Source: Pholidichthys leucotaenia (Eukaryota). Taken from it: a stretch of DNA of 64,000 nt. The stretch spans positions 157,315,922 to 157,379,921 of the forward strand of contig CM035843.1 in assembly GCA_020510985.1 (NCBI GenBank), read 5' to 3'. The notes under the pieces were generated by a model. It worked only from the letters and a program-made list of their open reading frames with translations, ran no database searches and was not told the origin of the DNA. Within the stretch, counting starts at the first letter, position 1. Each line of letters opens with the position of its first letter. This document shows positions 24,555 through 63,093 of the stretch, piece by piece. The position numbers were made by a program, and so were the translations under genes.

Positions 24555-26164
24555 TACAGTGGGGCCCAAAAGTATTTAGTCAGCCACCAATTGTGCAAGT
24601 TTTCCCACTTAAAAGATGAGAGAGGTCTCCAATTTTCATCATAGGTATACCTCAACTATGAGAGACAAAATGAGAAAAAAAAAATCCAGAAAATCACATT
24701 GAAGGATTTTTAATGAATTAATTGGTAAATTCCTTGGTAAAATAAGTATTTGGTCACCTACAAACAAGCAAGATTTCTGGCTCTCACAGACCTGTAACTT
24801 CTTCTTTAAGAGGCTCCTCTGTCCTCCACTCATTACCTGTATTAATGGCACCTGTTTGAACTCATTATCAGTATAAAAGGCACCTGTCCACAACCTCAAA
24901 CAGTCAGACTCCAAACTCCACTATGGCCAAGACCAAAGAGCTGTCAAAGGACACCAGAAACAAAATTGTAGACCTGCACCAGGCTGGGAAGACTGAATCT
25001 GCAATAGGTAAGCAGCTTGATGTGAAGAAATCAACTGTGGGAGCAATTATTAGAAAATGGAAGACATACAAGACCACCGATAAGCTCCCTCGATCTGGGG
25101 CTCTATGCAAGATCTCACCCCGTGAGGTCAAAATTATCACAAGAACGGTGAGCAAAAATCCCAGAACCACACGGGGGGGCCTAGTGAATGATCTGCAGAG
25201 AGCTGGGACCAAAGTAACAAAGGTTACATCAGTAACACACTACGCCGCCAGGGACTCAAATCCTGCAGTGCCAGACGTGTCCCCCTGCTTAAGCCAGTAC
25301 ATGTCCAGGCCCGTCTGAAGTTTGCTAGAGAGCATTTGGATGATCCAGAAGAGGATTGGGAGAATGTCACATGGTCAGATGAAACCAAAATAGAACTTTT
25401 TGGTAAAAACTCAACTTGTCGTGTTTGGAGGAGAAAGAATGCTGAGTTGCATCCAAAGAACACCATACCTACTGTGAAGCATGGGGGTGGAAACATCATG
25501 CTTTGGGGCTGTTTTTCTGCAAAGGGACCAGGACGACTGATCCGTGTAAAGGAAAGAATGAATGGGGCCACGTATCGTGAGATTTTGAGTGAAAACCTCC
25601 TTCCATCAGCAAGGGCATTGAAGATGAAACGTGGCTGGGTCTTTCAGCATGACAATGATCCCAAACACACTGCCCGGGCAATGAAGGAGTGGCTTTGTAA
25701 GACGCATTTCAAGGTCCTGGAGTGGCCTAGCCAGTCTCCAGATCTCAACCCCATAGAAAATCTTTGGAGGGAGTTGAAAGTCCATGTTACCCAGCGACAG
25801 CCGCAAAACATCACTGCTCTAGAGGAGATCTGCATGGAGGAATGGGCCAAAATACCAGCAACAGTGTGTGAAAACCTTGTGAAGACTTACAGAAAATATT
25901 TGACCTCTGTCATTGCCAACAAAGGGTATGTAACAAAGTATTGAGATGAACTTTTGTTATTGACCAAATACTTACTTTACTGAGGAATTTACCAATTAAT
26001 TCATTAAAAATCCTTCAATGTGATTTTCTGGATTTTTTTTTCTCATTTTGTCTCTCATAGTTGAGGTATACTTATGATAAAAATTGGAGACCTCTCTCAT
26101 CTTTTAAGTGGGAGAACTTGCACAATTGGTGGCTGACTAAATACTTTTTTTTATCCCACTGTAA
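24555..26164 (+). mobile_element. Tc1-family DNA transposon no. 2 (1.6 kb, ~200-bp TIRs) with a frameshifted transposase
   Basis: The TIR tacagtggggcccaaaagtatttagtcagccaccaattgtgcaagtt is inverted at 26100..26164. Transposase ORFs 24923..25318 and 25336..25944 carry the HTH region, [17 protein letters not shown] and [12 protein letters not shown] 1-nt frameshift near 25210 separates the HTH and DDE parts. Confidence 0.85.
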
Positions 26165-34576: not shown

Positions 34577-35101
34577 AAGATGGATGGATGGATGGATGGA
34601 TGATGGAAGTGTTGCTGTCATTAGGAGGGAGATGGTCAGATTGGTCCCAGCACCCCCCCACCCCCCGCCGCCATAACCAAAAAGGTTTACGCAGTTGAAG
34701 ATGATTGAAAGAATGGATGAATGGATTGCTCATATTAAACTCGCACAAACCTCGCGTCTCAGTTCAACTGTGGCTAATGACACACAATTTATGATAAAGG
34801 TTTAGAAAAATAACGGCCACCATATGAGGAGTTAACTGTTGCTGTGAACGGTACATGATGGTCCAGCTGGGCCATTTCGACTTCTCATTTCCCTTACGAA
34901 ACAAAAATATATTGCAGTATATAGGAAAATATCATGCAATACATTAAGCAATATATTCCCATATATGAGATTTAGTATTTATATTTTCCAATATATTGCA
35001 ATGTAAGCATAGACCATATATGTGTATTGATAAATATAAAAAATGTATTGCAATAAGAGCACTATATTTTTACATGTAATAGTCTGTCTTTATATGCTAC
35101 A

Positions 35102-35119
35102 ACATACTGCAATATGGCC

Positions 35120-35153
<34 letters not shown>

Positions 35154-35180
35154 TATATATACTGTATATATATATATATA
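35102..35180. repeat. (TA)n microsatellite, interrupted
   Basis: tatatatatatatatatatatatatacagtatatatactgtatatatatatatatata. Confidence 0.9.
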
Positions 35181-37255
35181 TACACCCTAAAGCAAATACA
35201 ATGAAGACAAAAATCTGCATTACACAAATAAGATTTATTGTTGACAATCTTGACAGTTGAAATGTACTTTGCCATTACATTTTCAATCCTCCACACTGGA
35301 TCTTGGAGGTATGCATACATAGAGGCTTGCATATTGTGGCAGATCAATTAGCATACATTTTCTTTTGAACAGTGTCACATCAAATATTTGTTTCCTGCCC
35401 CGGAATTCCCTTTTCAGACCAACTACATTTTCAGCATAAATCAGTGTACTATGTGACCTATCATATTTTCTCCCAAAAGCAAAGCATTTTCTGCTACCAT
35501 GTTGCTCTATTACAATGTAATAGTATACAGTGATGATGTGTCCATTCTGCAACAGCACAGTGAAGCTGTTCCTTTTCACTACCCTTGTGAACTCCTGAGA
35601 ATAATACAGCTCTCCGCTGACTAGAAGTTGCCTGAATATTTTCACGACTGTATCCGTGGTGACTGAAAGTTGCTCTCTCATGACCAGTAACTCTTCGCTT
35701 GAAAGTTTTTGACAATAATGCAAACCAAGGGTAACAAGTTGATCACCTACTCTTTCAAACTGCTTCCTTTTTTGGCCAGTTAACTTACTAAATAGCTGGA
35801 TGCATTCAGGAACAGCATTTCTCAGTGCATCATTCCTTAAAAGAGGCAATACTTGTCTATATGTGAATTGTTTCATTATCTGTAAAGGAACAAATTGAGT
35901 GCCATGAAACATTTTCAGTATTTCACCATTATATGACTCAAAAATATACCCAGAATGGGCCCACAAAGGTCCCCAATTCCTGACAGACTCTGGCAAATGA
36001 AGACATAAATGTACATTAAATGACACATTTGTTTTCCCATACAGTGTTTCAAATTGTTTGACAAAATCTACAAGTTTTTCACATTTTTGTACATCCTCTG
36101 TTGTAATAATGTCCTTACAAAGTAAGAACATGAATGTGACAAGGACTAACCAGTGCTGGTAAAATACCTGGGGCAGAATTCCTTTTAGCACAAATACACT
36201 ATAAAACAGTAACCAGTTCTGTCATTCAGAAGCCTTCCAAAACTTTCTCTGCTGAAGAGATCGGCGCACTCTTGTGATATTGCAAGGAGGCTTAATTAGT
36301 AAAAGCTGCTGATCAAGTTCATTCACTCTATTGCCAATATAATAAGGCTTTTCATGGTTATCACTGTCCAGCCACATGCTTGCCATTTGGCGAACCACAC
36401 CAAGATGTATATTATGCATGTGGTCAGGAGGCATGCCAGATATGATGTCAAAGTGTGGAATATTAATCAGACATGTGGGCCCTTTAACACCCCTCACAGA
36501 TTTTTTTGTACATAAAGCCTCCCTTGCATCACTTATTGTTGAAGCGTGGTCCCTCTTTGGAACATCTTTGTATGGGTAAACCCTGACGGTGCCATGACCC
36601 TTTTCAACTTGTTCACCGGGATGTAAACAGAGGCTGCATCCATAGTGGCCATTAAATTGCGTCATGTTTTGAAGTATGGGCCTAGCTACCGAATCACACA
36701 TCATAAGAGCAGCCACAACTCTACATTGTTCCGAAATGCCATTTCTTGTTATCTTAAAGCCCTCAGTTGACAACGTCTGACACTCTAAAATTAAAGGCTT
36801 TAAAAATGTATTAACATTTGGCTTTTATCCCCAAACCACAAGCCAAAAAGCAGAACACTGTCTTTACGCACAGGGTAAGGAAGCTTGTTTACAATCCCAT
36901 ATAATGACCAAATACCAAAGAGTGATGATTTGAATACAGGCACTCCATCACAGTTGAGTGTTAAGGAGTATCCATGAGCACAGTCAAGCGGGCCTCCAAT
37001 TTTGTTCAGATTACGGTACATTTTACCACTTCCAATATCATCAAAAATTTCAGAATGACATGTGCCATCTCTTGACTTGATACAAAGTGCAATATCTTCT
37101 CTTTGAAGAAGATGTTCCAACTGTGTTTGGATTGGTAAGTATATAAAGTAGTTTCCATTCTTCAGTGAGTTGTTTTTATCCCATGTTGTGTTGCATACAA
37201 CACATTGTCCTTCACTATCCTGTTCACCAATATAGTACTCACAGTTTGGACAATA

Positions 37256-38856
37256 TACAGTGGGGCAAAAAAGTATTTAGTCAGCCACCAATTGTGCAAG
37301 TTCTCCACTTAAAAGATGAGAGAGGTCTCCAATTTTCATCATAGGTATACCTCAACTATGAGAGACAAAATGAGAAAAAAAATCCAGAAAATCACATTGA
37401 AGGATTTTTAAAGAATTTGTTTGCAAATTATGGTGGAAAATAAGTATTTGGGCAATAACAAAAGTTCATCTCAATACTTTGCTATATACCCTTTGTTGGC
37501 AATGACAGAGGTCAAATGTTTTCCATAAATCTTCACAAGGTTTTCACACACTGTTGCTGGTATTTTGGCCCATTCCTCCATGCAGATCTCCTCTAGAGCA
37601 GTGATGTTTTGGGGCTGTCGCTGGGCAACACAGACTTTCAACTCCCTCCAAGGATTTTCTATGGGGTTGAGATCTGGAGACTGGCTAGGCCACTCCAGGA
37701 CCTTGAAATGCTTCTTACAAAGCCACTCCTTCGTTGCCCGGGCGGTGTGTTTGGGATCATTGTCATGCTGAAAGACCCAGCCACGTTTCATCTTCAATGC
37801 CCTTGCTGATGGAAGGAGGTTTTCACTCAAAATCTCACGATACATGGCCCCATTCATTCTTTCCTTTACACGGATCAGTTGTCCTGGTCCCTTTGCAGAA
37901 AAACAGCCCCAAAGCATGATGTTTCCACCCCCATGCTTCACAGTAGGTATGGTGTTCTTTGGATGCAACTCAGCATTCTTTCTCCTCCAAACACGACAAG
38001 TTGAGTTTTTACCAAAAAGTTCTATTTTGGTTTCATCTGACCATGTGACATTCTCCCAATCCTCTTCTCGATCATCCAAATGCTCTCAAACTTCAGACGG
38101 GCCTGGACATGTACTGGCCTAAGCAGGGGGACACGTCTGGCACTGCAGGATTTGTGTCCCTGGCGGCGTAGTGTGTTACTGATGTAACCTTTGTTACTTT
38201 GGTCCCAGCTCTCTGCAGGTCATTCACTAGGTCCCACCGTGTGGTTCTGGGATTTTTGCTCACCGTTCTCGTGATTATTTTGACCTCACGGGGTGAGATC
38301 TTGCGTGGAGCCCCAGATCGAGGGAGATTATCAGTGGTCTTGTATGTCTTCCATTTTCTAATAATTGCTCCCACAGCTGATTTCTTCACACCAAGCTGCT
38401 TACCTATTGCAGATTCAGTCTTTCCAGCCTGGTGCAGGTCTACAATTTTGTTTCTGGTGTCCTTTGACAGCTCTTTGGTCTTGGCCATAGTGGAGTTTGG
38501 AGTCTTGACTGTTTGAGGTTGTGGACAGGTGTCTTTTATACTGATAACGAGTTCAAACAGGTGCCATTAATACAGGTAATGAGTGGAGGACAGAGGAGCC
38601 TCTTAAAGAAGAAGTTACAGGCCTGTGAGAGCCAGAAATCTTGATTGTTTGTAGGCGACCAAATACTTATTTTCCACCATAATTTGCAAATAAATTCTTT
38701 AAAAATCAGACAATGTGATTTTCTGGATTTTTTTTTCTCATTTTGTCTCTCATAGTTGAGGTATACCTATGATGAAAATTGGAGACCTCTCTCATCTTTT
38801 AAGTGGGAGAACTTGCACAATTGGTGGCTGACTAAATACTTTTTTGCCCCACTGTA
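37256..38856 (-). mobile_element. Tc1-family DNA transposon no. 3, same subfamily as no. 2, inserted into the CACTA-like transposase coding region
   Basis: TIR tacagtggggcaaaaaagtatttagtcagccaccaattgtgcaag at 37256.., inverted at 38810..38856. Transposase ORFs 38093..38488(-) and 37471..38079(-) are near-identical to those of element no. 2 and share the same frameshift. Confidence 0.85.
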
Positions 38857-40089
38857 TGTGACATTGTAGGTGACTTTCTATTGGCTTAAGCTCTTTTAAG
38901 AACACATGCTTTGAGGTTAACTGTGTGTTTTCTGGACAGTGAATATTGATCAAATCTAGGAGATCTGAGAGAGCCATGCCTGTGAGTCCGTGTCTCAAAA
39001 CAAATGAAAGTATAAGTAAAAAACTCTGAGCTTGGGTTAGTCGTGAACCAGTGTAAAGTGTCTCTTCGTTTTCCAGTTCATGACCGACTTTTCCAAAATG
39101 TGATTCCTCATTTACTGACTCATCAGGGCTATCTTCAAATAAAAGGGAAGATTCTTCTTCACTTCCAATAATGGATCCAAGACTGTCATCCAAGTCATTA
39201 TGAATATAGTTACTGGTATTTGGTGACACGTGGCTGCAATTAGGTTCATCATTGAATGGAGGTTCACTTTCTGTGGAACATTCATCCTCAAACAAGAGTG
39301 GGGAAGTAAGACATCTGGGAACAGAATCGCTGCAGTCAACATGCAGGCTCTATATATGGAGAAAAGAAAAAAAATTCTGGTTAGAGAAATGTTGTTTGAT
39401 TCACTTACTTACTGTCACTTTAGTTCTTCAGTACCTTCAGTGAATTAGTCAAAAGTTTAACTACACACAATCCAGTAGAGCCAGTGACAATAAACTGAAA
39501 CACTTTATACCAATTTCACTTTACTGTCACAGTTGCTGCTCTACCCCTTTGCTGATCTGGAGAGAGCAGTAAACACTAATGCTTCCTCTGACAATTGCCA
39601 ACCACTACTTTTAAACTGACAGGATGTAGCTTCACCAGCATGCTCCGTCCTGACTGACGGTGCAGTGACCTGGACTGAGCATTCATCCTAGCTTCCAACC
39701 TGCAGACAGCTACAAATATGTTCCACACAGTTGAAACTTACACAGACTTTGGCTCTTTCTGATAAACTTTGTTGTCCACTGAGAGGAGAATATGGTTCAG
39801 AATCGTAATCAACCTAAAAAAAACACATTAGAAAATAAAAACCCATAGAAAGTTTACAAACCAACCTGCATGTTACAACATGCAAACTACAGAAACTATA
39901 CACACTTTACAAAATGTACGCTATAGAGGTTATGCACATGTCGTCATGAGCACGACAACAGTGTTGCATCCTTAGCAATAGAAGCTAAACTGAGTGGATT
40001 GCAAAATCAACGCATTTCTGTTCAGTAGACTCGAGTTGTGACTTTCTTTCTTTTCCTCGCAAAACATTCTCAAATGGTGAAGCTCTGTC

Positions 40090-41060
40090 ATGTCACTGAT
40101 CACACAAACCTCCATCCATCCATCTTCTACCGCTTTTCCAGAGGTCCGGGTCACGGAGGCAGCAGTTCAAACAGAGAAGCACAGACTTCCCTCTCCCCAG
40201 CCACCTGCTCCAGCTCTTCACAGAGGATACCAAGGTGTTCCCAGACCAGCTGGGAGACATAGTCTCTCCACCGAGTCCTGGGTCTGCCCCGGGGTCTCCA
40301 CCTCAAGTGGGAGGCGTCCAGGAGGCATCCTAATCAGATGCCCATACCACCTCAACTGACTTCTTTCAATGTGGAGGAGCAGCGGTTCTACTCTGAGCCT
40401 CTCCCGGATGACTGAGCTCCTCACCCTATCTCTGAGGGTGAGTCCAGCATTCCTATGGAGAAAGCTCATTGTAGCCACTTGTATCCACGATCTTATTCTT
40501 TCGGTCATTACCCAAAGCTTGTGAGGTGAGAGTAGGAACGTAGATTGACTGGTAAATCGACAGCTTTTCCTTAGAACTAAGCTCCCTCTTCACCACAACA
40601 GACCGGTACAACGTCCGCATAACTGCAGATGCTGCTCCAATCCGTCTGTCAATCTCTCGCTCCATTTTCCCCTCACTCGTGAATAAGACCCCAAGATACT
40701 TAAACTCCTCCACTTGGGGCAGGAGCCTGTCCCCAACCCAGAGAGGACAAGCCACCTTTTTCTGGCTGAGGACCATGGACTCGGACTTGGAGGTGCCAGC
40801 CGCTTCACACTCAGCGGCAAACTGTCCCAGCAAGAGCTGTAGGACATTGCTGGATGAAGCCAACCGGACAACATCATCTGCAAACAACAGAGATGAGATC
40901 CTGTGGTCAATGTACACTATACTCACCATAATGTGGCTGACATCATGTGCATCTTCAGAGCCATTGTCAGAGTCATAGTGAGAGGAATTTTCATTCAGAT
41001 TCTGTGTTGCAGAAAAGAATACAAAGTATTGATAAACCTTTGTTACACAATACACGCACA
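40090..41060 (-). mobile_element. LINE RT-C-terminal fragment
   Basis: ORF 40453..41055(-) carries LLFADDVVRLASS and FKYLGVLFTSEGKMEREIDRRIGAASAVMRTL. ORF 40218..40508(-) carries MTERIRSWIQVATMSFLHRNAGLTLRDRVRSSVIRERLRVEPLLLHIERSQLRWYGHLIRMP, the conserved LINE ORF2 C-terminal tail. Confidence 0.75.
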
Positions 41061-41418
41061 GTCACCAGCCACCAACAGGATCTAGCATGTGGGAGATGCT
41101 ATTCCAACCAGTTGCCTTCCCTCCAAACTTGATTAAAGAGATACATGGGTTGCCAGAGCGACAAAAATCCCATCAGCTAGATAATCTACAGTATTTATTT
41201 ATGTATCCTTGAAGAACACCTGGTTGGACCATTTTATCCATTTTTAAGCTTTTAAAAAACCACAACTGTATTGACCAAGTGCAGCACTCCCACTTCTGCC
41301 TACCTACAAGTTTGATTAAAGAGATACTCCACATCCCCAAATCAGAAGTATCATCTCAGTTAGTAGGGAGATACCAGTGTAGCTTTACCATGACATCACA
41401 ACACTTCTGACTACTGAC

Positions 41419-42273
41419 TAGGGATGGGCATACTTTACCGATTAACTGATAATTGATCATTAAGAATTTCACCGAGGAAGTTCATTTTCGTCGACAAACC
41501 GTTTTTTTTTTTTTTTTAAACAATCCGACGTTATTAGGCCTAGTGCACGGCCGTCCTCAAACAATGCAATGGCAAAATTTGGGCACCAGGGGGCAACATT
41601 ACACCATCGCCGTACCCTGGCGTGCCTCAGTTGATACATGCGGGCTTCCGTAGGGCAATCGCCAAATCATGAAGCGGTTATGGCGAAGTGTTGCGTGGGA
41701 CCATTTCAATTTAAAAAATGACCAGGTGTACTGCAATCACTGCAATGCAGCATACAAATATACCTCATCGACAGGGTCCATGGAACACCCTTATTACGCG
41801 AAGAAACCGCCAACAGTGGTTGCGCGCTGAGTAATGGCGGTCGTGAAGATTCTTTTTTTTTTTCAGAAACTTTATTGAGAAGGTCATGAAGATTCAGTGT
41901 ACACACGTCGAGGGAAGCTGCAGGAGGCGGCGTAGTGGCTCGACGGGAAGACTATTTCGCACAAAATGGCACAAGAGAACAGCAAAAAGTTCTGCGCGGC
42001 TAGACTAAGTAACACGAGCGATAGAGCAATGAATGCGGTCTTCGTTTGTTGGGTGGCCGCTCGGCAGGGACAGTCGGCCAATCAGCTTGCGGGGTGAAAC
42101 GTCTCGGCCAATCAGCTTGCGAGATTCCCGAGGGCTCTCCGTGCTGATTCCTGATGTTCTAATGTAGTCTACCTGCCTTGTTATGTACCTAAAAATGTTA
42201 ATGATTAACCGATTATTAATCATTAATTCTCCCGACGATCGGTGAAGAAAATTTCACCGAATGCCCATCCCTA
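41419..42273. mobile_element. hAT-like non-autonomous element (~855 bp): TIR TAGGGATGGGCAT, 8-bp TSD CTACTGAC, and an internal BED-zinc-finger remnant
   Basis: ctactgac at 41411..41418 and at 42274..42281. Terminal tagggatgggcat is matched by atgcccatcccta. Subterminal ccgattaa and ttaatcat repeats. 41700..41830 translates as NDQVYCNHCNAAYKYTSSTGSMEHP, a BED-like C..C..H pattern. Confidence 0.7.
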
Positions 42274-43736
42274 CTACTGACTATCCCTAACCTATTGCTG
42301 CCTGAACTGTAATAAACACACAAACAGATCTCGGAACCCCCCCCCCCCCCCCAGCAAAAAACAAATATGTTAATATTGCACTATAATGCAAGCGCTACAG
42401 AGGCCAGATTCTTGCAAAAGTTGAAACTTACAGAGTCTTCTGCTCCTGAAAAACTTTGTAGTCCAGTGAGTGGAACCCAAGGTTCAGAATAATCATCCTA
42501 ATAAAACAGAAATAAATAACAAAATGCCGGTAAACAAAAATGAACACCCATACAGTCTACAAACCAATCTGCAAGTTACCATGATGTATGTAACATGCTA
42601 ACTCCACAATATATTTTTAATACAAAACCTAAAATATACTGAACACTAAATCTGCACAATTAAAGACTGCCTGAAATGCAATGAATAATGCTGTAAGTGT
42701 TTTATTAACATGGATCATGCACGCAGAGCATGAGATGGTTTCGTCTTGTGTTGAAAATCCAGCACACACCTTTCTCTGGCAGTGGTGCGCTCCATCTCTC
42801 TGCCAAAGCACAAACACATTGTGCTTTTTCTTTATATATCTCAAGTGGGCATCAATATGTGGGGCCTATGTTAGCATTATTAAAGCAGACCAATTCATTC
42901 TTAAAAAGTCCTATTGTCAGTGCAGTATTAAACACTGTCACATTGTAGAGCTGAGTGCCTCAGTGCTCTGGTGATTTTTCTGTGCTCTACATGAAATACC
43001 TTATTTGAAAATAGCCGATCAACGAGCTTGTCGATCTGCTATTTAAGGTTTTCCAGAATCTGAAACTTACATGGCCCTCTTCTGTAGTTCCCCATAGTCT
43101 TTCTGAAGATGGTTCACCTTGGGGGGATCCAGGCATCAGAACTGGCATGAGCTCTTGTCTAAACAAAAGATGACAGTTTCCATCTAATGACTGCAACAAA
43201 TTTGACAAAAATATGTAGCTGTAACTCAGTCACAATATCGTCATTGCCAAAATGTACTCTACACATAGACTACACATATTTTAAGATATTGATGAAGACA
43301 TCTGTTGCTGGAGATGCATCTGGCAATACAATAGTAATTATTAAAAATAAGAAAAAATAGTTCTATTTTGTGAGAAGTAGATCTGGCTACATATAGCCAA
43401 GTACAGTATAGTTTAACGCTACATGTTTAAAGTTCATGACTTACCACATCCTGGTTTGGCTGATCAATCTTGGTATCTCTCATTGCTTCCCTAAAGTGAT
43501 AGAAAACATAGATTCATATTAATCTTTGAATACATGATTCTCAAGCTTAATTCCCCCTGAGGAAATACATAGATCTATTAAATAAAAATGTTACTGTGAC
43601 ATGATCATATCAATAGATGCAAAATGATAAATGGTGTAATGCTAAATGCAAATAGAAGATAGTAGCCGTGTTATAAATAATGTTATGTCACCCCAAGTTA
43701 CCTCTCTTCGGCTAGGCAACATCATGGCTACAGTCA

Positions 43737-43763
43737 CATCCAAAGCAATGAAAATAATAAAAT

Positions 43764-43790
<27 letters not shown>
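43737..43790. repeat. (TAA)n microsatellite flanked by a ~50-bp direct repeat
   Basis: aataataataataataataataataacaataat; ggcRacatcatggctaSagtcacatYcaaagcaat occurs on both sides, at 43710 and 43818. Confidence 0.85.
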
Positions 43791-43794
<4 letters not shown>

Positions 43795-44149
43795 TAATCC
43801 TCTTGTCTATCATCCCTAGGCGACATCATGGCTAGAGTCACATTCAAAGCAATAAAAAAGAATTGTCCCCTCCATCATCCCTGTCTATCAGTTTTGTTTG
43901 CAGCAGATATAATTATCGTGTGCTGTATAAACGGCCAGAATCAAGCAGAAAGGACTAACCTTTTTTTCCATAATCGTCTTGTTCTTCTTGGGATATCCGT
44001 TTCAGAACCAGGGAGGATATATTTCCTTTTCAGTCGGACTCGGTCCATTTTCTACATTTGTCTGTACTCTGAGCTAGCTAACGTAAGGTTAGGTTGTTTT
44101 GATTTGAAAACGGATGGGATGAGATACATGACTACTTTTACCAGAGTGC

Positions 44150-44311
44150 TCAGCGCGAATGGAGCATGCGCATAACAATCGCCCCGAACAAGCCAGCCAA
44201 TCATGGCACAATGACGTCTTTCATGCATGCGCAATGCTAGGCGCGAATGTCGGTTGCTTTAAGCGGGAAGAAGAAACGGAGAGGCACAACCATAATATAT
44301 ATTTAGCAAAA
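44150..44311 (+). promoter_or_regulatory. Putative promoter of the candidate gene: CCAAT box, CRE-like TGACGTCT, NRF1-like GCATGCGC
   Basis: agccaatcatgg at ~44192, tgacgtct at ~44207, catgcatgcgcaatg at ~44222, with the ATG at 44312. The ORF is also open from 44159, so the start assignment is uncertain. Confidence 0.3.
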
Positions 44312-45829
44312 ATGTCAAAATATAGGTTTGCCCTTGTTAGTTGGGCGAAGGGACCTGACAAAGATAAAACCAGCATCGTTCCCATCAGCTGGATAATTGA
44401 TTTTGACCCAGCTGCTACTACTGACACGACATATCTTGTTGAATGTCGAACAACTAACAGCAAGAAGCCTGCTAATGGATGGCCCATTGAAGATGCTGTT
44501 GTTCTTCAGTTAGCAGGCAAGTCGGTCTTACACACACTCTCACACTTGACCTATTACTTATTTCCTACCAGTTACTGTATTATCAAATACAGCAACAAAA
44601 TGTTCTGTTTATTATGTCAAAATGTGTATCCCGTATTTCACTATTTTGCAGTCTTAAATTTGGCACACAATTATTTATTCTGTAGTATTTATTAATACAG
44701 TGGTGTTTAGTTTGATATTAAATCTATCCTTATAAATTAATGTAGAAAAAGAGGCTACACTGAGAGCTGCTGAGCGGGAACTGGAAGCACAGGAACTGAG
44801 CGGGAACATGCCGGCCAAGAGGGTGAGAAAAGGAAAACACCTGGACTTTGATGAAGAATATTTTGGTACTGGTGACAAAGCCTCTGGCTCTGGAAATCCA
44901 AAACAGGTAATTCAACAGAGATTGATATCACATTATGCATCATTTGTGTAATGGATTATCCATAACTAAATAATAAAAATTAATATCTTTGCCCTATAGA
45001 AAAAGGCCAAAGTTGCTGCTCAAAGACGGGTGGAAGAGGAATTACTGTCAGGGAACAGTCAGTTCAGCCTCGGTCCAGCAGAATCGTCAAGCCAGGAAAG
45101 AGATGACTTTACCAGAGATCTGCAGAGCCAGATCAAGGCTTTACATAAAGAAAACTCCAAACTGCGGAACATGGTAGTTAAAGGCATGTATTGAGTATTA
45201 TGTCATCAAATATTATTACATATCATATGATATTACTCCATTTAGACCTGAGGGTGATTCTAAAGATGCTATCTAAATCTAAAAAGCAATTGCCCATATC
45301 AGCCCATGTGTGGTCAGATAGGTGGGTTACAGGTATTTTAAGAGCATGTTTGAAGAATCACGAGCATAATTATCACTCACACAAGCATAATAAGCAGAAA
45401 AATGATGGTTGCAATTTGTCTATGTGATTGTGCAAGTAACAACCATCAGTCACAGTCTGTATCATTTATACTGATTGTTACTGTTAATGAGCCCAGGGTA
45501 AATGAGCATGATATACTGTACATGAAGTCAGTGTCAATTCTATAACTTGCTCCTGTTACGATTATTTTAATGATACGTCAATTGATTTGTAGCATCTTGG
45601 ACAATATTGGTCTTCATGGTTGCTGTCTGAATAATCTTGTACTTTTTTCTCAGAAATTCCAGCTCTGTTGGTGGAGGTGAGAAAACTTGTCTCCTTCAAC
45701 ACCACCACCACCACCACCACCACCAACAAAGATGTTGACAACCACCCCACCAAACATGCTGATGAACCTTATGCAGAGAGTGATGGCCCAGGTGAAACAT
45801 CACTTTGCACACCTTGCAGACCTTCACAT
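44312..45829 (+). CDS. Candidate host protein-coding gene, 5' part of four exons: N-terminal beta-barrel-like domain, coiled coil and poly-Thr; further exons not identified
   Basis: Exon 1 is 44312..44516 (MSKYRFALVSWAKGPDKDKTSIVPISWIIDFDP, YLVECRTTNSKKPANGWPIEDAVVLQLA) with donor AG|GCAAGT, the GC-AG consensus. Exon 2 is 44746..44906 (EKEATLRAAERELEAQELSGNMPAKRVRKGKHLDFDEEYFGTGDKASGSGNPKQ) with donor CAG|gtaatt. Exon 3 is 45000..45183 (KKAKVAAQRRVEEELL, QSQIKALHKENSKLRNMVVK) with acceptor tttgccctatag and a putative GC donor AAG|gcatgt. Exon 4 is 45654..45829 (EIPALLVEVRKLVSFNTTTTTTTTNKDVDNHPTKHADEPYAESDGPGETSLCTPCRPSH) with acceptor acttttttctcag and donor CACAT|gtaagt. The phases are consistent at 1, 0, 1, 0. 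Confidence 0.4.
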
Positions 45830-45928
45830 GTAAGTATTTGCACAGAGCGCAACCCCAATAAAACCCATGGCAGCCTGTCTACCCAATTTGCATCTGTCAA
45901 TGAAGCCCTGAGTGCTGCTTTCAGTGAT

Positions 45929-46336
45929 CTATGAAAACGCTTGCATAACCCATAGTCCCGACGGGACTCCAAAATGCGCCACCCATGCTGTTAAAAAAGT
46001 GCGCGCTACATCCACGGACGCGGTTGCCGCCAGCGGGACCGCTTCTGGCCAGCGCGTGGTGCAGTCCACCATTGTCAGGAGGTGCGTCCACCCCTGTGAT
46101 GGCAGGAGGGGGCCCACGAGGTCCACGTGAACATGGTCGAACCTCTTAGCCGGAATACGAAACGGCTCCAAGGGAGCCTTCGTGTGTCTGTGTACCTTGG
46201 CTCGTTGGCACACCACGCAGGCTGCAGCCCACTCTTTCACTTGTTTGCGTAGGCTCGGCCACACAAATTTTTCTCCCACCATTTTGACCGACGCGCGCAC
46301 TCCTGGGTGCGCCAGAGTGTGAACCGACTCAAACAC
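45929..46336 (-). CDS. Gypsy copy B integrase HHCC finger plus the start of the DDE core
   Basis: HPGVRASVKMVGEKFVWPSLRKQVKEWAAACVVCQRAKVHRHTKAP and FDHVHVDLVGPLLPSQGWTHLLTMVDCTTRWPEAVPL. Confidence 0.8.
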   Translation of the reverse strand: MFESVHTLAHPGVRASVKMVGEKFVWPSLRKQVKEWAAACVVCQRAKVHRHTKAPLEPFRIPAKRFDHVHVDLVGPLLPSQGWTHLLTMVDCTTRWPEAVPLAATASVDVARTFLTAWVAHFGVPSGLWVMQAFS

Positions 46337-46546
46337 GCGGCCGGGACCACCGGACGCGGGCGACCCATGGAGACATCACAGATTGGGGGGGGGGGGGCTC
46401 CATCCTGCAGCACCCTGCTCTCCAGCCTTAACCCTGTTGGTCCAGACTGGAGCGCGCGCACGTCTGCATCGCTAATCTGCTCCGCGGCCATGGCTGCGTA
46501 ATCTATCCCCACGCAGACTGGGGCCACCAAGGCATGCGAGAGGCAG

Positions 46547-49500
46547 TCAGAATCAGAATCAGAATCAGAATCAGAATCAGAATCAGGTTTATTGCCATTG
46601 TTCATGTAGTACACAAACTAGGAATTTGTCTCGGTACAATGCTGCAACATTAAACATGATAAGATAAGAGAAATAAACTATACATGTAATAAAGTGTAGG
46701 ATAAGATTAAGTGATACTGGTCAACAGTTAAAATATATATTAGCCAGCAGCAGATACTGTGGAGAACCATATAGTGCAGTCGGTAATGCAGGAAGAAAAC
46801 AGTGATGATTGACATGAGTCTGGTTGAGCTGCTGTACATGGTGCACGAGAGTCAATAAGTCACTTAGTGTTCAGCAGTCTAATGGCAGAGGGGAAGAAGC
46901 TGTTCATGTGACGGGAGGTTTTAGTCTGGATGGACCGAAGTCTTCTACCAGAGGGGAGGGGGGCAAACAGTACGTGACCAGGGTGTGAGGGATCGGCTAT
47001 GATCCGGCCAGCACGCCTCCGGGTCCTGGAGATGTACAGATCCTGGAGAGATGGGAGCTTGCAGCCGATCACCTTCTCAGCAGTGCGCACGACGCGCTGC
47101 AGCCTTAGTCTGTCTCTGGCAGTGGCTCCTGCGTACCACACGGTTATGGAGGTGGTGAGGATGGACTCGATGATGGCTGTGTAGAACTGCACTAACATCT
47201 TGGTGGGTAGCTTGAGCTTCCTCAGCTGCCGCAGGAAGAACATCCTCTGCTGGGCTTTTTTGATGAGTGAGCTGATGGTCAGCTCCCATTTGAGGTCCCT
47301 GGTGATGGTAGTGCCTAGGAAGCGGAAGGAATCAGCAGTGGTGATGGGAGAGCCTGAGAGGGTGAGGGGGGGCAGAGGAGTAGTGACTTTCCTGAAGTCT
47401 ACAATCATCTCCACTGTCTTCAGAGCGTTCAGCTGCAGGTTGTTATTGCTGCACCAGGACGCCAGCTGGGCCACCTCTCTCCTGTAGGCGGACTCGTCGC
47501 CGTTGGAGATGAGCCCGATGAGGGTGGTGTCGTCCGCAAACTTGATCAACTTGACAGACTGGTGGCTGGAGGTGCAGGAGTTGGTGTAAAGGGAGAAGAG
47601 TAGGGGGGAAAGTACACAGCGCTGGGGTGATCCGGTGCTGATGCTAGTATAGTCTGAGACAGTCTTTCCCAGCCGCACATGCTGCCTCCGGTCCGTCAGG
47701 AAGTCGATGATCCACCTGCAGAGGGAGTCAGGCACGTTGAGCAGGGACAGCTTGTCCCGGAGCAGAGCGGGGCGGATGGTGTTGAATGCGGAGCTGAAGT
47801 CCACAAACAGGATCCTGGCGTAGGTTCCCGGGGAGTCCAGGTGCTGCAGGATGGAGTGGAGGGCCAGGTTGACTGCATCGTCTACAGACCTTTTGGCTCG
47901 GTAGGCAAACTGCAGCGGGTCCAAGAGAGGGGTGGTGATGGACTTGAGGTGGGACAGGACCAGGCGCTCAAAGGACTTCATGACTACAGAGGTGAGTGCT
48001 ACAGGTCTGTAGTCATTAAGTCCAGTGATCCGTGGCTTCTTGGGGACAGGGATGATGGTGGAGGATTTGAGGCAGGACGGCACGTGGCATAACTTAAGGG
48101 AGGTGTTAAAAATGTCTGTGAATACAGGAGCCAGCTGTTTTGCACAGAGTCTCAGGGTGGAGGGAGACACGCCGTCTGGGCCGGGGGCCTTGCGCGGGTT
48201 CAGTCTGGAGAACTGTTTGAGCACATCCTGCTCACTGATGATAAGGGGAGGGGGGGAGGAGGGGGGGGTGCCTTAAATGAAGTAGGGAATGTGGAGGCTG
48301 TGGAGCTGGAGGGAGGGGGGAAGTTGGACACAGATGACGAGGTGTCAAAACGGGCATAGTGTTGGGACAGTCTTTGACAAAGGGCTTTGTCATCCTGACC
48401 TTTAGGAGCCTTAGGTCGATAGTTGGTGATTTGCCTCAGTCCTCTCCACACAGACATATATCCACAAAAGTGGATATATGAGTTCACAGTGTCCGTGTAC
48501 TCATCCAGATCATGCATGGCTCCTTTAAGCATGCCCCAGTCAGATATTTCCATGCACGTTTCCAGCTTCTCCTCAGCATCACTGGTCCGTATCTTCGTAG
48601 TGCTCACAACAGGTTTAGTGAGCTTCAATCTCTGTCTGTATGTGGGAATGAGGTGAACCATCACGTGATCAGATAATCCCAGCGCAGCTCGAGGGACAGC
48701 GCGATATGCGTCTTTCACTGTGGTGTAACAGTGATCCAGTGTGTTTAATCCTCTGGTGGGGCATTTAATAAACTGTTTGTAGCGGGGGAGATCGTGGCTC
48801 AGATTGCACTGATTAAAGTCGCCAGCCACAATAATCAGCGAGTCTGGAAAACTCCGCTCTGTGTGTTGAATGTGATCCGCGAGCACGCGCTGAGCTTCGC
48901 GCGTGTCCGCGTCGGGAGGGGCGTACACAGCGATCATTATGAAAGAAGCAAACTCCCGCGGGGAATAGAAGGGCTTGCAATTGATAACAAGAAATTCCAA
49001 GGCAGGAGAACAGTGTTTGGAAATTACCATTACATCAGAGCACCAGCTGCAGTTGATGTAGAAGCAGACACCGCCTCCTGTGGTCTTGCCGGAAAGCTCT
49101 GTGTCACGATCAGCACGGAAGAGCTGAAAGCTGTCGAGGCGCAGCGCGCTGTCCGGTATATTTTCCCGGAGCCAGGTCTCAGTAAAGCAGAGGACAGCTG
49201 AGGAGGCGAGGTCCTTAAAACGCATCAGCAGTCTCAGTTCATCTACCTTGTTAGAGAGAGAGTTGGTATTGGACAGAAATATGCCAGGCAGCGCCGTTCG
49301 CGAGCCTGTCCTGCGAAGTCGTACGAGAGCGCCCGCTCATCTTCCTCTCTTCCGCCGTCTCACTTTCCGAGCCAAACAATAAACCAGATCGGCGGCAGGG
49401 GCTAGAAAAACTGGGAGGAGGTCCGTGGGGGTGAAAGTCCTGATATTTAGAAGTTCTTCACGGGTATAAGTGCAAGCAGACACACAATTGACAAACAAAA

Positions 49501-49550
49501 ACAAACAAAGAGCGCAGCGAAGCACCATGTCGACCGCTGTGGGCGCCATC
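46547..49550 (-). mobile_element. L2-type LINE (~3.0 kb: ORF2 endonuclease plus RT, (TGATTC)n 3' tail) nested inside the Gypsy copy B integrase/RNase H region
   Basis: (gaatca)n at 46547..46586 forms the 3' tail. RT ORF 46860..48224(-) carries [33 protein letters not shown] and ends [10 protein letters not shown]-endonuclease ORF 48200..49225(-) carries CFTETWL and IVAGDFNQ. The ORF2 N-terminus 49337..49549 carries TREELLNIR and RKRGR. There is a frameshift near 48210. Confidence 0.85.
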
Positions 49551-50399
49551 TTGGATGCTTTCCAAGATGTAGTCCGCCACTACATTCAGTTTACCAGACA
49601 CATGCTGAATATCAGTAGTAAACTCTGAGATCGCGGCCAGCTGTCTCTGCTGCCGGCCCGACCACGGTTCTGAAACCTTGGCCATCGCGAATGTTAGTGG
49701 CTTGTGGTCCACGAACGTGGTGAAGCTGCGCCCTTCCAGCCAGAACTGGAAGTGGCATATGGCCAGGTGAAGGGCCAGCAACTCTCTGCCGAATGCGTTG
49801 TATTTACGTTCGCTGTCGCGCAAAGTTCTGCTGAAAAAAGGGAGCGGCTGCCAAGCCCCGGCGACGCGCTGCTCCACGACAGCCCCTATGGCCATGTCTG
49901 AAGCGTCGGTGGTGAGCGCTATGCGGGCCGTCGGGTCTGGATGCGTCACCAGTGCGGCGTTTGACAGGGCTGCTTTAACTTCCGAGAACGCCCGCTCTCG
50001 CTCCGGGGTCCATTCGACCCTATCCGCGGGTTTCTGCTTCTTGAGCGCGGCGTATAATGGTTGCATGAGCTGCGCCGTGCAGGGAAAGAAATGGTTATAA
50101 AAGTTCACCATTCCCAAAAATTCCTGCAGCGCGCTGACGGTCTGAGGCCAGGGAAAATCCGCCACGGTGCCCACCTTGTCGGGCAGCGGGATCGCTCCTT
50201 CGGGAGAGATGCGGTGCCCCAAAAAATCAATCTCCGTCATGCCGAACTGGCATTTCGCCGGGTTGATTATTAACCCGTGCTCCTTCAACCTCCGGAAAAC
50301 CGTCCTGAGGTGGGTTTCGTGTTCGTCTTCGGACGCACTGGCTACCAGGATATCGTCCACGTAGACGAACACAAACGGGGAGATCGCGCAGCACTGCAT
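49458..50399 (-). CDS. Gypsy copy B RT C-terminus plus RNase H ORF
   Basis: [11 protein letters not shown] (the YxDD box), [13 protein letters not shown], and the RNase H segment [17 protein letters not shown]. The last ~30 codons read through into the L2 5' end. Confidence 0.8.
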
Positions 50400-50503
50400 C
50401 CATCATGCGCTGGAACGTCTGTGCCGCTCCTTTTAACCCGAATGGCATGCGCAGGAACTCGAATAGACCGAATGGAGTTATTACCGCTGTTTTGGGTATG
50501 TCC

Positions 50504-52084
50504 TCAGCGCGCACTGGGACTTGGTGGTAACCGCGGACCAGGTCTATTTTGGGAAAAAATGCGCTCTCCGGCGAGGTGAACGGAAAAATCCTGTATGTGG
50601 GGAATTGGGTAGTGGTCGTGCGCTGTGGCGTTGTTCAACCTGTGGAAATCCCTGCACGGTTGCCACGATCCCTCAGCCTTAGGGACCATGTCTAGCGGGG
50701 AAGCCCATGGGCTGTTCGAGCGCCTGATGATGCCCAACCTTTCCAGGTTGGCGAACTCCTCGCGCGCTATGGCCAGTTTAGCTGCGTCCAGGCGCCGAGG
50801 TCTTGCAAAAACGGGCGGCCCGGTGGTGGTGATAAAGTGCTCCACCCCGTGTTTAACGATGCCCGCGGAAAACATCGGGACCGTGAGTGCTGGGAACTGA
50901 GTGAGCAGTGTGTGGAACTTACCGCCTGTAGCTGTGACGTTGGCTTGTGCTGTTGGTTGGGTCACTCGAGCTATACAGGGGAGAGAGTCAAAGGACAGTG
51001 CATTAACCAAACGCCTGTTAGCAACATCAACCAGTAAACCATGTGCACACAGAAAATCAGCCCCCAGTATGTGGTAATTCAGTGCTGCTACGACAAAAGT
51101 CCACTCATATGTACGGCCGTGTAGAGATAAGAGCAGAGTCCTCTCACTGGGGCCGCTAGATCCTGCCAGCTGGTCAGCGTAGGTCGGCCAGATGAAGCTC
51201 TTCTGGGCTCTGGTGTCCACGAGGAAACGCCTCTCAGAGCGTGCATCCGTTAAGCAGAGCAGCTTGTTCTCTTCACCGAGGGTCACAGCTGCTACCGACC
51301 CCCGGCCTTGGCGTTTTCCCGAGCGTTTGAATTGGCACGGTGGCGCACATCTGCATGCCTTCTCTCCGAAGCGGCGGTGGTAGAAACAGAGCGTGTCTCT
51401 CTGACGCTCCTTGGCCCCCGCTGCCGCTACCGTCGGTGGCTCCTCGCCTCCTCTGGTCGTCTCGCTGGGCTCTGCCGCTGCTGCGTTGACTGTGATCGCC
51501 CTGGTGGTGATGATGATCCGGTCTGCCTCCTGGGCTAGCGCACGGTAGTCGCGCGTGGCCAGCCACGGCGAATTGGCCAGAACCGCTCTCGCCACTGTTG
51601 GAAGGTTCCAGAGGAAGAGGTGGGCAAACAGAAAGTGCGCGTCGTCCGTGCCCATCAACGCCAGCATCTTCTTCATCAGGTCTATGGCTGAACCATCTCC
51701 TAACTCGGTCCGCGTCAGGAGCCTCTCTGCTCTCTCACATTCCGAGAGTGTGTAGCGCTGGATAAGTGCAGCCTTGAGTGCTTCATATTTGCTGCTGGCT
51801 GGTGGCTGATTGAGCAGGCTCACTACCTGCTGAGCTGTGCGGGCGTCGAGCGCTGCGACCACATGATAGAATCTGGTATCATCTACCATTACTCCCTGGA
51901 GGGTGAACTGGGCCTCGGTGAGGTGGAACCAAGAGCGTGGGTTGTGCTGCCAGAAATCCGGTAGCTTGACTGAAACCGCACACGCATGGCTGGGGGTTCC
52001 AGTCCTGGCTGTCTGTGGGATGGCTGCCGCCCCGCTGTAGCTTCCTGACCGGGCCGGCTCCAGGGATCTTGCCTCGTGTTCCAT
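50504..52084 (-). CDS. Gypsy copy B gag-protease-RT N-terminal ORF (526 aa)
   Basis: A gag-like region; a protease-like segment around [13 protein letters not shown]; RT motifs [27 protein letters not shown] and YPIPHIQDF. Confidence 0.75.
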
Positions 52085-52959
52085 AATACGTCTTGGGTCA
52101 CCAGTGTGGAGTGTGTGAAATCAGAGGCGGAATCATTTCAGACGATTTATTACACACTCACATCTTTCAAGCACAGAACAGACTGGATTCTCAAGAAGAA
52201 ACTCCTCTCTTAAGTTTCATGGCATTTACATCACACACAACATGATATTTGCATCACACTGCATCCAACCCCCTCATCCTTGACTCCTTCCTGCTATCTC
52301 ACCAGGAATCCCCTGCTCTTTGTTCTCCCAAGCTTATCCACTGTCTCCTGTCTGAGATGCTAGACAATCTGGCTCTCCCAAGGTGCTATACATTGCTACA
52401 ACAGCACCTTTATTTAACCACCTATAGACTCCAGCTGACGGAGATATGTTTTGTTTGCATATTTCTTCATCAGGAGATGCCAGCAATATATCATAAAGGA
52501 ATAAAATGCACAAGATTTGGGGACATTGCCTGAGGAAAAAAATTGTAGGACTCACAGTAATCCTGTGGCAGTCTGATGAATGCGTACTTTTTGTTCTCAG
52601 ATTTGATTGCAAACCAGAACTAATGATCTTGGTGTACTGGTATGCTAAAAATGCATTGCTAATGACTACCACTGTGAAAAAATTGCAATTGGGGTTCTAG
52701 TTCATTCAACAATGTGTGTGAATCTGGTACACAATGAACACAAAGAATTATAGCTTTGTTAATTCCAGCAGGTCCTGCATCATCAGGATGTTTCCCACAG
52801 GAATGGGGAGGCTGAGCATGACACGCTGACATCTGTTGCTTTTAGCTCTTTTATGACCTGTTTAACACCTTTTTGAACTTCTAGACAGAGAGGATATTGT
52901 CTTTTATATGGTCTATAGTGTGACTTTGATGTTACAGTGACATACTTTGCCTCCTTTAA

Positions 52960-55860
<2,901 letters not shown>

Positions 55861-62082: not shown

Positions 62083-63093
62083 TCAATATTTTGTTGAGGA
62101 TCCTTTGCAGGCAATGACTTCCTGAAGTCTGGAACCCATGGACATCACCAAACACTGGGTTTCCTCCTTTGTGGTGCTTTGCCAGGCCTTTACTGCAGCT
62201 GTCTTCAGTTGTTGCTTGTTTGTGGGTCTTTCTGCCTTAAGTTTTGTCTTGAGCAAGTGAAATGCATGCTCGATTGGGTTGAGATCTGGTGATTGACTCA
62301 GCCATTGCAGAATATTCCACTTCTTTGCTTTAAAAATTCCTGGGTTGCTTTTGCAGTATGGATCATTGTCCATCTGTACTGTGAAGCGCCGTCCAACCAA
62401 CTTTGCTGCATTTGGCTGAATCTGAGCAGAAAGTATATCCCTATACACTTCAGAATTCATCCGGCTGCTTCTGTCTTTTGTCACATCATCAATAAACACA
62501 AATGACCCAGTGCCATTGGAAGCCATGCATGCCCATGCCATCACACTGCCTCCACCATGTTTTACAGATGATGTGGTGTGCTTTGGATCATGAGCAGTTC
62601 CAATTCTTCTCCAAACTTTCTTCTTCCCATCATTCTGGTACAAGTTGATCTTAGTCTCATCTGTCCAAAGAATGCTGTTCCAGAACTGGGCTGGCTTCTT
62701 CAGGTGTTTTTTCACAAAGTCAATTCTGGCCTTTCTATTTTTGAGGCTGATTAATGGTTTGCACCTTGTGGTGAATCCTTTGTATTTACTCTCATGAAGT
62801 CTTCTCTTTATGGTAGACTTAGATACTGATACACCTACTTCCTGGAGAGTGTTCTTCACTTGAGTGGATGTTGTGAAGAGATTTCTGCGATCATCCACCA
62901 CTGTTGTCTTCCGTGGACGTCCAGGCCTTTTTGAGTTCCCAAGCTCACCAGTGCACTCTTTTTTTCTCAGAATGTACCAAACTGTTGATTTGGCCACTCC
63001 TAACATTTCTGCTATCTCTCTGATGGATTTCTTCTTTTTTTTCAGCCTCAGGATGGTCTGTTTCACCTCCATTGAGAGCTCCTTTGACCGCAT
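62083..63093 (-). CDS. Tc1 transposase, complete 336-aa ORF with no internal stop or frameshift
   Basis: MRSKELSMEVKQ and GVAKSTVWYILRK form the HTH region. Motifs WTDETKINLY, VQMDNDPYC and [15 protein letters not shown] follow (DDE-like spacing), and the ORF ends with a stop after KGSSTKY. Confidence 0.8.
   Translation of the reverse strand: MRSKELSMEVKQTILRLKKKKKSIREIAEMLGVAKSTVWYILRKKECTGELGNSKRPGRPRKTTVVDDRRNLFTTSTQVKNTLQEVGVSVSKSTIKRRLHESKYKGFTTRCKPLISLKNRKARIDFVKKHLKKPAQFWNSILWTDETKINLYQNDGKKKVWRRIGTAHDPKHTTSSVKHGGGSVMAWACMASNGTGSFVFIDDVTKDRSSRMNSEVYRDILSAQIQPNAAKLVGRRFTVQMDNDPYCKSNPGIFKAKKWNILQWLSQSPDLNPIEHAFHLLKTKLKAERPTNKQQLKTAAVKAWQSTTKEETQCLVMSMGSRLQEVIACKGSSTKY

Follow-up and report, generated by a model that had tools for sequence, protein, structure and literature searches.

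The question raised by this locus is whether a large, spliced reading frame with the look of a transposase is a gene of its fish host or part of a mobile element and, if the latter, of which kind. It lies in a 64-kb stretch of Pholidichthys leucotaenia DNA, called the window here, which is repeat-rich and vertebrate-like in character; all coordinates are positions within it. The first-pass annotation had seen a multi-exon transposase gene of the Transposase_21/DUF4218 kind between 35283 and 43158, knocked out by a Tc1 insertion. Comparison with related loci in other fishes placed this gene in a longer unit, which is very probably a decayed copy, truncated at one end, of an autonomous DNA transposon of the cut-and-paste type with many copies in teleosts. 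The unit also carries a second, divergently transcribed gene, whose homologs include BEN-domain proteins.

34891..45829, transposase on the minus strand: transposon copy with about 3.4 kb of nested insertions; its transposase-side end is whole, its BEN-gene side truncated

Seven loci from other fishes (L001 to L007) were collinear with the window through exons and introns. Similarity stopped at position 34891 in all five loci that hold this end (L001, L002, L003, L005 and L007), as read in the sequence of L001, L002, L005 and L007 and as a BLAST endpoint in L003. From 34891 the plus strand reads CCCTTACGAAAC..., and the flanks beyond were mutually unrelated. The termini were CCCTTACG...CGTAAGGG (window, L001, L002, L004, L005, L006 and L007). 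Two of the loci are complete copies. L007 (Dallia pectoralis) is a 9837-bp full copy, and L005 (Leuciscus chuanchicus) measures 6061 bp, an internal deletion having removed its whole transposase gene but neither of its ends. The ends of both copies form inverted repeats of 23-24 bp (CCCTTACGAAAG... / ...CTTTCGTAAGGG). They are flanked by a 2-bp duplication, AA/AA in L005 and CC/CC in L007, which is within the 2-5 bp range of the CACTA-Mirage-Chapaev (CMC) superfamily and the wider clade that includes Transib (CMCT). The AATATATT core, often as CAATATATTG, was counted 20 and 18 times at up to 500 bp from the ends of the two complete copies, where about 0.5 is expected, and was almost never seen in the element interior. 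The CACTA terminal inverted repeats (TIRs) and 3-bp target-site duplication (TSD) that had been expected were not found: the ends read CCCTTACG... and the duplication was 2 bp.

34891..34913, plus strand reading CCCTTACGAAACAAAAATATATT: terminal inverted repeat of the transposase side; breakpoint and sequence recur in L001, L002, L005 and L007
34891..35100: zone of subterminal repeats, in which the window copy keeps three AATATATT cores (34906, 34950 and 34990)

The window holds one end of the element. When the window was searched for the terminal 12-mer in both orientations, a single end came up, and the inverted repeats detected around the transposase gene in the window were the Tc1 arms alone. 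The far terminus and the BEN exons are not in the window; homology to the other copies ends at about 45839, in the intron after exon 4 of the BEN-type gene. A truncated retroelement of the long terminal repeat (LTR) type adjoins this break point (45840..52100, minus strand; gag-like, reverse transcriptase (RT)/RNase H and integrase open reading frames (ORFs)). It is itself interrupted at about 46860..49225 by a long interspersed nuclear element (LINE) with endonuclease and RT ORFs. At the intact end, the stretch from the transposase stop codon to the terminal repeats contains a (TA)n microsatellite (35120..35185), which is shorter or absent in other copies.

These comparisons bear directly on whether the gene could belong to the host. 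A domesticated transposase, kept by fishes as a host gene and reduced to a pseudogene here, would agree with the RefSeq annotation of relatives as ordinary multi-exon protein-coding genes with isoforms. It would also agree with the high protein identity between distant fishes and with the better conservation of coding sequence than of introns (91.6% versus about 77-85%). Such a gene is nevertheless very improbable in view of the inverted ends with their 2-bp flank duplication, the same breakpoint in unrelated genomic contexts, and a deletion derivative in which nothing but the ends and the second gene is left. Copy number tells against it as well: an identical 942-residue protein is annotated at no fewer than four loci in Toxotes jaculatrix, and clusters at 90% identity have 34 and 41 members. 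Moreover, the introns could be aligned among cyprinid, damselfish, wrasse, loach and blackfish, which speaks against a host gene because orthologous host introns of that age would not align. Judged from these sequences, the element is a transposon and not a host gene.

The transposases of catfish and leuciscid were 96% identical, and those of archerfish and leuciscid 89% (P0041, P0042, P0005, P0026 and P0002). A grouper transposase was 94% identical to a protein of the assembly that holds L001. Such high identity across orders suggests that the element may have been transferred horizontally among teleost orders. One annotated protein, P0012 (Xyrichtys novacula), is a chimera of an unrelated N-terminal part, the middle of the transposase and a frameshifted tail, and illustrates how such copies contaminate gene sets.

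The large minus-strand exon of the transposase was real as proposed, and the KMYRNL, LNCDGVPVFKSS, LPYPVRK and CPNC signatures were all located in it; its acceptor, however, lies at 39349 and not at 39342. Its DNA was 91.6% identical to the intact 805-codon exon of L001.

35283..39349, minus strand: main transposase exon, including the TGA stop at 35283..35285, split by a Tc1 insertion
37255..37193, minus strand: motif YCPNC...CVVC, present
37024..37007, minus strand: motif KMYRNL, present
36958..36923, minus strand: motif LNCDGVPVFKSS, present; this block holds the catalytic first D, intact in the window frames
36883..36863, minus strand: motif LPYPVRK, present
36704..36678, minus strand: catalytic second D, intact in the window frames
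36641..36615, minus strand: C(2)C, intact in the window frames
36017..35994, minus strand: H(3)H, intact in the window frames
35975..35925, minus strand: catalytic E, intact in the window frames

The protein reconstructed from the window has 913 residues. Its matches to the two expected Pfam families fell in the right order but were marginal and below the cut-offs (Transposase_21, PF02992: E=0.0022, 17.6 bits versus 28.6; DUF4218, PF13960: E=0.031, 14.6 bits versus 27). Several relatives, themselves matching the query at E=1e-113 to 1e-217, passed them (P0011 29.3, P0013 35.3, P0020 44.0, and P0025 with DUF4218 at 32.2). Among 20 relatives, 15 matched Transposase_21, 10 matched DUF4218 and 7 matched DUF1258. 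The CMCT clade (CACTA-Mirage-Chapaev-Transib) has the signature D, D, C(2)C, H(3)H, E (PMC12730594). In 20 homologs, down to 22% identity, D250, D335, C354 and C357 were invariant and H563, H567 and E587 nearly invariant (numbering of the intact relative P0002).

The AlphaFold model of P0002 (predicted local distance difference test score 79.9, predicted template modelling (TM) score 0.80) had 45 matches in the PDB with E<=0.001, all of them to the RAG1 core or to the Helicoverpa Transib transposase (HzTransib). The best structural match was RAG1, with E=4e-11 and a TM score of 0.61 (target-normalised). The family sequence profile, compared with the PDB, hit only RING-like proteins, weakly and in the zinc ribbon (Hakai, E=0.007), and did not find RAG1. 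The relationship to RAG1 is visible at the level of the predicted fold only. The catalytic signature and the RAG1/Transib-like predicted fold bore out the assignment to the Transposase_21/DUF4218 (CMC) kind, and on these grounds we class the protein as a transposase of the CMC kind with a putative RAG1/Transib-like core. The element belongs to this known superfamily, and its proteins are listed in public databases as "uncharacterized" only; the family may already be catalogued under a name.

The transposase gene of the window copy carries four independent disabling lesions: exon 3 has a +1 frameshift, and the main exon has a -1 frameshift, a TGA stop and the inserted Tc1. The knockout by Tc1 had been recognized, and the TA flanks support it; removal of the insertion together with one TA in silico restored ...HLQCHIYCPNCEYY... 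in frame. The other three lesions, namely the 1-nt deletion, the in-frame TGA and the extra C of exon 3, had been missed. The A run at the deletion has five A in L001, L002 and L007. The window copy is dead because of these four lesions, and the BEN exons and the far terminus are lost besides. The Tc1 insertion is itself broken in its own transposase frame, of which DDE transposase remnants are present. A second copy of the same Tc1 family, 95.4% identical to the exon insertion, lies on the opposite strand at 24557..26150.

37258..38854, minus strand: Tc1-type transposon of 1597 bp, with TA at 37256..37257 and 38855..38856 and arms that are 100% complementary
36823..36826, minus strand: 1-nt deletion in an A run, GATAAAAGCC versus GATAAAAAGCC in other copies, causing a frameshift
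36222..36224, minus strand: in-frame TGA where all homologs have W (KASEWQNW)

Upstream of the main exon, the three short exons proposed earlier were present, each followed directly on its 3' side by the donor 10-mer GTAAGTTTCA and each with an AG acceptor. This 10-mer occurred exactly three times in the 64-kb window (39741..39732, 42431..42422 and 43070..43061), against 0.19 expected, and is unique to these sites. The list was correct in these three and lacked exon 1, exon 2 and a B-type mini-exon at 41001..40927. The exons of 66 and 72 nt are in phase 0 and join in frame as claimed, but the frame from the true ATG breaks in 43158..43071 because of one extra C.

43960..44048, minus strand: exon 1 with the ATG, encoding MDRVRLKRKYILPGSETDIPRRTRRLWKK, a basic stretch like a nuclear localization signal; it matches the N-termini of P0003, P0005 and P0041
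43445..43490, minus strand: exon 2, 46 nt, matching ...TLTEANDIEIRKSIQDL of P0003
43071..43158, minus strand: exon 3, a diverged A-type mini-exon, 88 nt with the extra C; 87 nt, phase 0 and PRAHASFDAWIPVSEPSSERLSETTEEVN in the intact copies L001 and L002
42432..42497, minus strand: A-type mini-exon, 66 nt, phase 0, encoding DDYSEPWVPLTGLQSFSGAEDS
40927..41001, minus strand: B-type mini-exon, 75 nt, phase 0, encoding NLNENSSHYDSDNGSEDAHDVSHIM; conserved in L001-L004 and found in P0003, P0006 and P0026
39742..39813, minus strand: A-type mini-exon, 72 nt, phase 0, encoding VDYDSEPYSPLSGQQSLSERAKVC, with AG acceptor and GTAAGTTTCA donor

The proposal of a multi-exon transposase gene with an N-terminal tail of duplicated mini-exons was upheld by fish proteins that join the same exon types in the same order (P0003 and P0054 from icefish, P0006 from Leuciscus and P0026 from grouper; P0005 and P0041 from archerfish and catfish). 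Full-length fish proteins start MDR..KRKY..PGS...IP.RT like exon 1, and the modules that follow agree in kind, order and boundaries. The module order was A', A, B, A in the window and A', A, B, A, B, A, B, A in the grouper copy, while one leuciscid copy had seven B modules. Of two RefSeq isoforms of one icefish gene, X1 has a single B+A pair more than X2 and is otherwise the same; this pair would therefore seem to be a cassette, and the mini-exons act as cassette exons in the annotated models of other fishes. Exons 42497..42432 and 39813..39742 are direct repeats, and their similarity extends into the intron on both sides; therefore the duplicated unit is exon plus intron. The array would have grown by tandem duplication of such units, giving acidic mini-exons in variable number, with type A approximating DDSEPWVPLSGQQSLSG and type B NLNENSSHYDSDNGSEDAHD. 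The part of the protein encoded by the mini-exons is acidic, as are the first 76 residues of the main exon, which are disordered in the AlphaFold model. The PWVPL sequence of an A-type mini-exon was considered as an HP1-binding PxVxL motif and rejected: other copies have AWPSL, VWSPI and PYSPL, and the only A-type positions kept across copies are W and the following P/S-L/I-S-G.

The mini-exons might instead be unexpressed repeats, intronic or upstream, that are open by chance and were stitched in by gene-prediction pipelines. The support for splicing is comparative, module number varies among copies, the region is predicted to be disordered, and two of the four modules are altered in the window copy (SEPYSPLSG in 39813..39742, and the frameshift in 43158..43071). 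However, copies from at least five species all retain the AG acceptors and GTAAGT donors, phase 0, and exon lengths that are multiples of three. The exons are also better conserved than the surrounding intron, and RefSeq and GenBank-submitter annotations independently join them identically. Exon 1 could join the main exon in frame without the mini-exons, so their retention in many copies, although dispensable for the frame, argues for use. We therefore consider chance reading frames improbable and favor genuine mini-exons of a spliced transposase gene.

The second gene begins on the other side of a short spacer and runs on the plus strand.

44049..44311: spacer of 263 bp between the two start codons, presumed bidirectional promoter
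44312..44516, 44746..44906, 45000..45183 and 45654..45829, plus strand: first four exons of the second gene, together an open frame of 242 codons

The 263-bp spacer was retained in the deletion derivative L005. By eye, the spacer contains a CCAAT box and a TGACGTC motif resembling a cAMP response element (44180..44220). Two of the four visible introns of the second gene have GC donors (44517..44518, GCAAGT; 45184..45185, GCATGT), the first of which is apparently kept in L001 and L003 (tblastn translations QLAGK and QRAGK). The BEN-domain exons are absent from the window copy. The BEN domain (PF10523, cut-off 23.2 bits) was found in the homologs P0074 (30.9 bits) and P0077 (27.2 bits), and is a property of the family, not of the window copy. 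Homologs have 230-297 residues and a leucine-zipper-like stretch. The gene stood head-to-head with the first exons of the transposase gene in 7/8 loci (window, L001, L003, L004, L005, L006 and L007), two of which (L004 and L005) have lost the transposase main exon. In the two complete copies the inverted ends enclose it.

Instead of taking part in transposition, this gene may be a passenger, that is, a captured host gene or a mere neighbor: DNA transposons do capture host genes, the role proposed for it is putative, L002 has no such gene, and both the window copy and L007 have lost the BEN exons. We regard a passenger as unlikely, though much less so than a host origin of the element or chance mini-exons. 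The gene is within the inverted ends of both complete copies, is the only gene left in L005, and keeps the same head-to-head position in all but one of the loci. In addition, palindromic subterminal repeats and a coiled coil would fit a dimeric, sequence-specific binder. From its conserved position, the BEN-type gene is taken to belong to the element.

Some observations weigh against the interpretation of the locus as a CMC-type transposon with two genes. The window protein stayed under the curated Pfam cut-offs. The 2-bp duplication is known from two complete copies only, and the ends are neither CACTA nor CA...TG. The splicing evidence is comparative and rests on the gene models of other groups. 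L002 lacks the BEN gene, and the action of both proteins on the ends, like the roles of the BEN protein and of the acidic tail, is inference only. As to the ends, the CMCT clade is described as having CA...TG "in most cases" (PMC12730594), and CCC...GGG ends do not exclude CMC membership because of this wording.

An intact element measures about 10 kb, with 23-24 bp TIRs starting CCCTTACGAAAG, a 2-bp TSD, and arrays of the near-palindrome (C)AATATATT(G) just inside each end. Its two genes are transcribed divergently from the 263-bp spacer between them. The main exon encodes a zinc ribbon, a DDE core whose zinc module is of the C(2)C/H(3)H type, and a C-terminal domain rich in beta structure; the transposase would excise and integrate by DDE chemistry, like its structural relatives RAG1 and Transib. 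The product of the second gene, which is about 290 residues long, contains a coiled coil and ends in a DNA-binding BEN domain, would bind the subterminal repeats as a dimer and help to assemble or regulate the complex, in analogy to TnpA of plant En/Spm. The acidic mini-exon tail would modulate activity or interactions.

A bolder reading joins these steps: a still-active vertebrate family in which a RAG1-like transposase works with an element-encoded BEN protein bound to palindromic AATATATT subterminal repeats, in which near-identical copies in distant fish orders reflect recent horizontal spread, and in which the acidic cassette array tunes transposase activity. We offer this only tentatively, and think it more likely to fail as a whole than to hold. 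If true, no eukaryotic DNA transposon would have been described before with a BEN-domain accessory factor, and BEN-domain genes might have arisen by domestication from a transposon. Full-text searches of a collection of PubMed Central open-access papers and bioRxiv preprints turned up no pairing of a BEN domain with a DNA transposon, which is not proof of novelty. Unusual compared with the literature read are the CCC ends, the BEN-domain gene with its divergent orientation, and a mini-exon array that can expand.

The window copy itself is an ordinary dead insertion with no obvious consequence for its host. In many fish genomes, a series of genes named "uncharacterized protein LOC...", some with multiple isoforms, are the two genes of one transposon family, and with defined ends and target duplication this family can be properly masked and counted. 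As a vertebrate CMC-type family with intact and apparently recently active copies, it is also a tractable relative of RAG1 and Transib.

Other mobile elements lie within and around the copy.

41419..42273, intronic: non-autonomous hAT-type element, with TAGGGATGGGCAT ends (13 bp) and a perfect 8-bp TSD CTACTGAC at 41411..41418 and 42274..42281
about 40150..40905, minus strand: LINE reverse-transcriptase fragment in the intron just after the B-type mini-exon, with ORFs 40218..40508 and 40453..41055 RT-like by eye

The hAT element had been reported inside the gene, and its ends and perfect duplication agreed with this. It has no transposase of its own, and its superfamily call depends only on the 8-bp duplication and the short inverted ends. 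In L001, an intact-looking hAT transposase gene (DUF4371, Dimer_Tnp_hAT; positions 3446..5338 of that locus) occupies the same mini-exon intron region. Other transposons seem to land often in the long mini-exon introns. Two more Tc1/mariner-type transposase ORFs of other families were found at 53964..54914 (316 residues) and 62083..63093 (336 residues).

Compared with known systems, the element shares with the CMC/CMCT group the catalytic signature, a 2-bp TSD within the 2-5 bp range, Pfam matches in its relatives and the predicted fold. It differs in its CCC...GGG ends, where CA...TG or CAC...GTG is usual. In plant En/Spm, TnpD is the transposase and TnpA binds the subterminal repeats. Both elements are large and have a spliced transposase, subterminal repeat arrays and a second, smaller protein, which is presumably DNA-binding here; the BEN protein would be the functional counterpart of TnpA. 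A canonical plant-type CACTA element, with CACTA termini, a 3-bp TSD and two products from one transcript, would account for the weak Transposase_21 and DUF4218 matches in the right order, for the repeat arrays at both ends and for the two encoded proteins. The termini CCCTTACG...CGTAAGGG already refute this reading, and CACTA ends further out are excluded by the divergent flanks. In each complete copy the flanks repeat 2 bp and not 3, two divergent genes supply the proteins in place of alternative splicing of one transcript, and the accessory protein is a BEN-domain protein in which similarity to TnpA was not detected. Some relatives, furthermore, fit the Mirage-type DUF1258 at least as well as the plant model (PMC3985635). 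A canonical CACTA element has almost no chance of being correct.

DUF1258 marks the Mirage group, adjacent to Transposase_21/CACTA (PMC3985635), and Mirage has animal hosts and the closeness to Transposase_21 in common with the element. DUF1258 was matched by 7/20 relatives, above the cut-off in P0020 and P0025, and was unmatched in the window protein and its close relatives. Chapaev has CAC...GTG ends, a 3-4 bp duplication and C(2)C, LH and H(4)H motifs (PMC4079192), with Pfam DUF1280 (PMC3985635). It was rejected here by H(3)H in place of H(4)H, the CCC ends, the 2-bp duplication and the absence of DUF1280 matches (0/20 relatives). A zebrafish CMC-EnSpm family has a 2-bp duplication and other ends (PMC13189230). 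This family, EnSpm-N49B_DR, resembles the present element in its teleost host, 2-bp TSD, evidence of recent activity and non-autonomous deletion derivatives; its ends are CACTCAAAAAAATGA versus CCCTTACGAAAG here.

RAG1 and Transib differ from the element in a sequence identity of only about 10-12%, a 5-bp versus a 2-bp duplication and other ends, and the RAG2-like partner is lacking here. The overall predicted fold is like that of the RAG1 core and of Helicoverpa Transib over about 610 aligned columns. The catalytic spacing is also alike: the 19 residues from the second D to C(2)C and the 20 residues from the last H to E equal the spacing in mouse RAG1 (D708-C727 and H942-E962).

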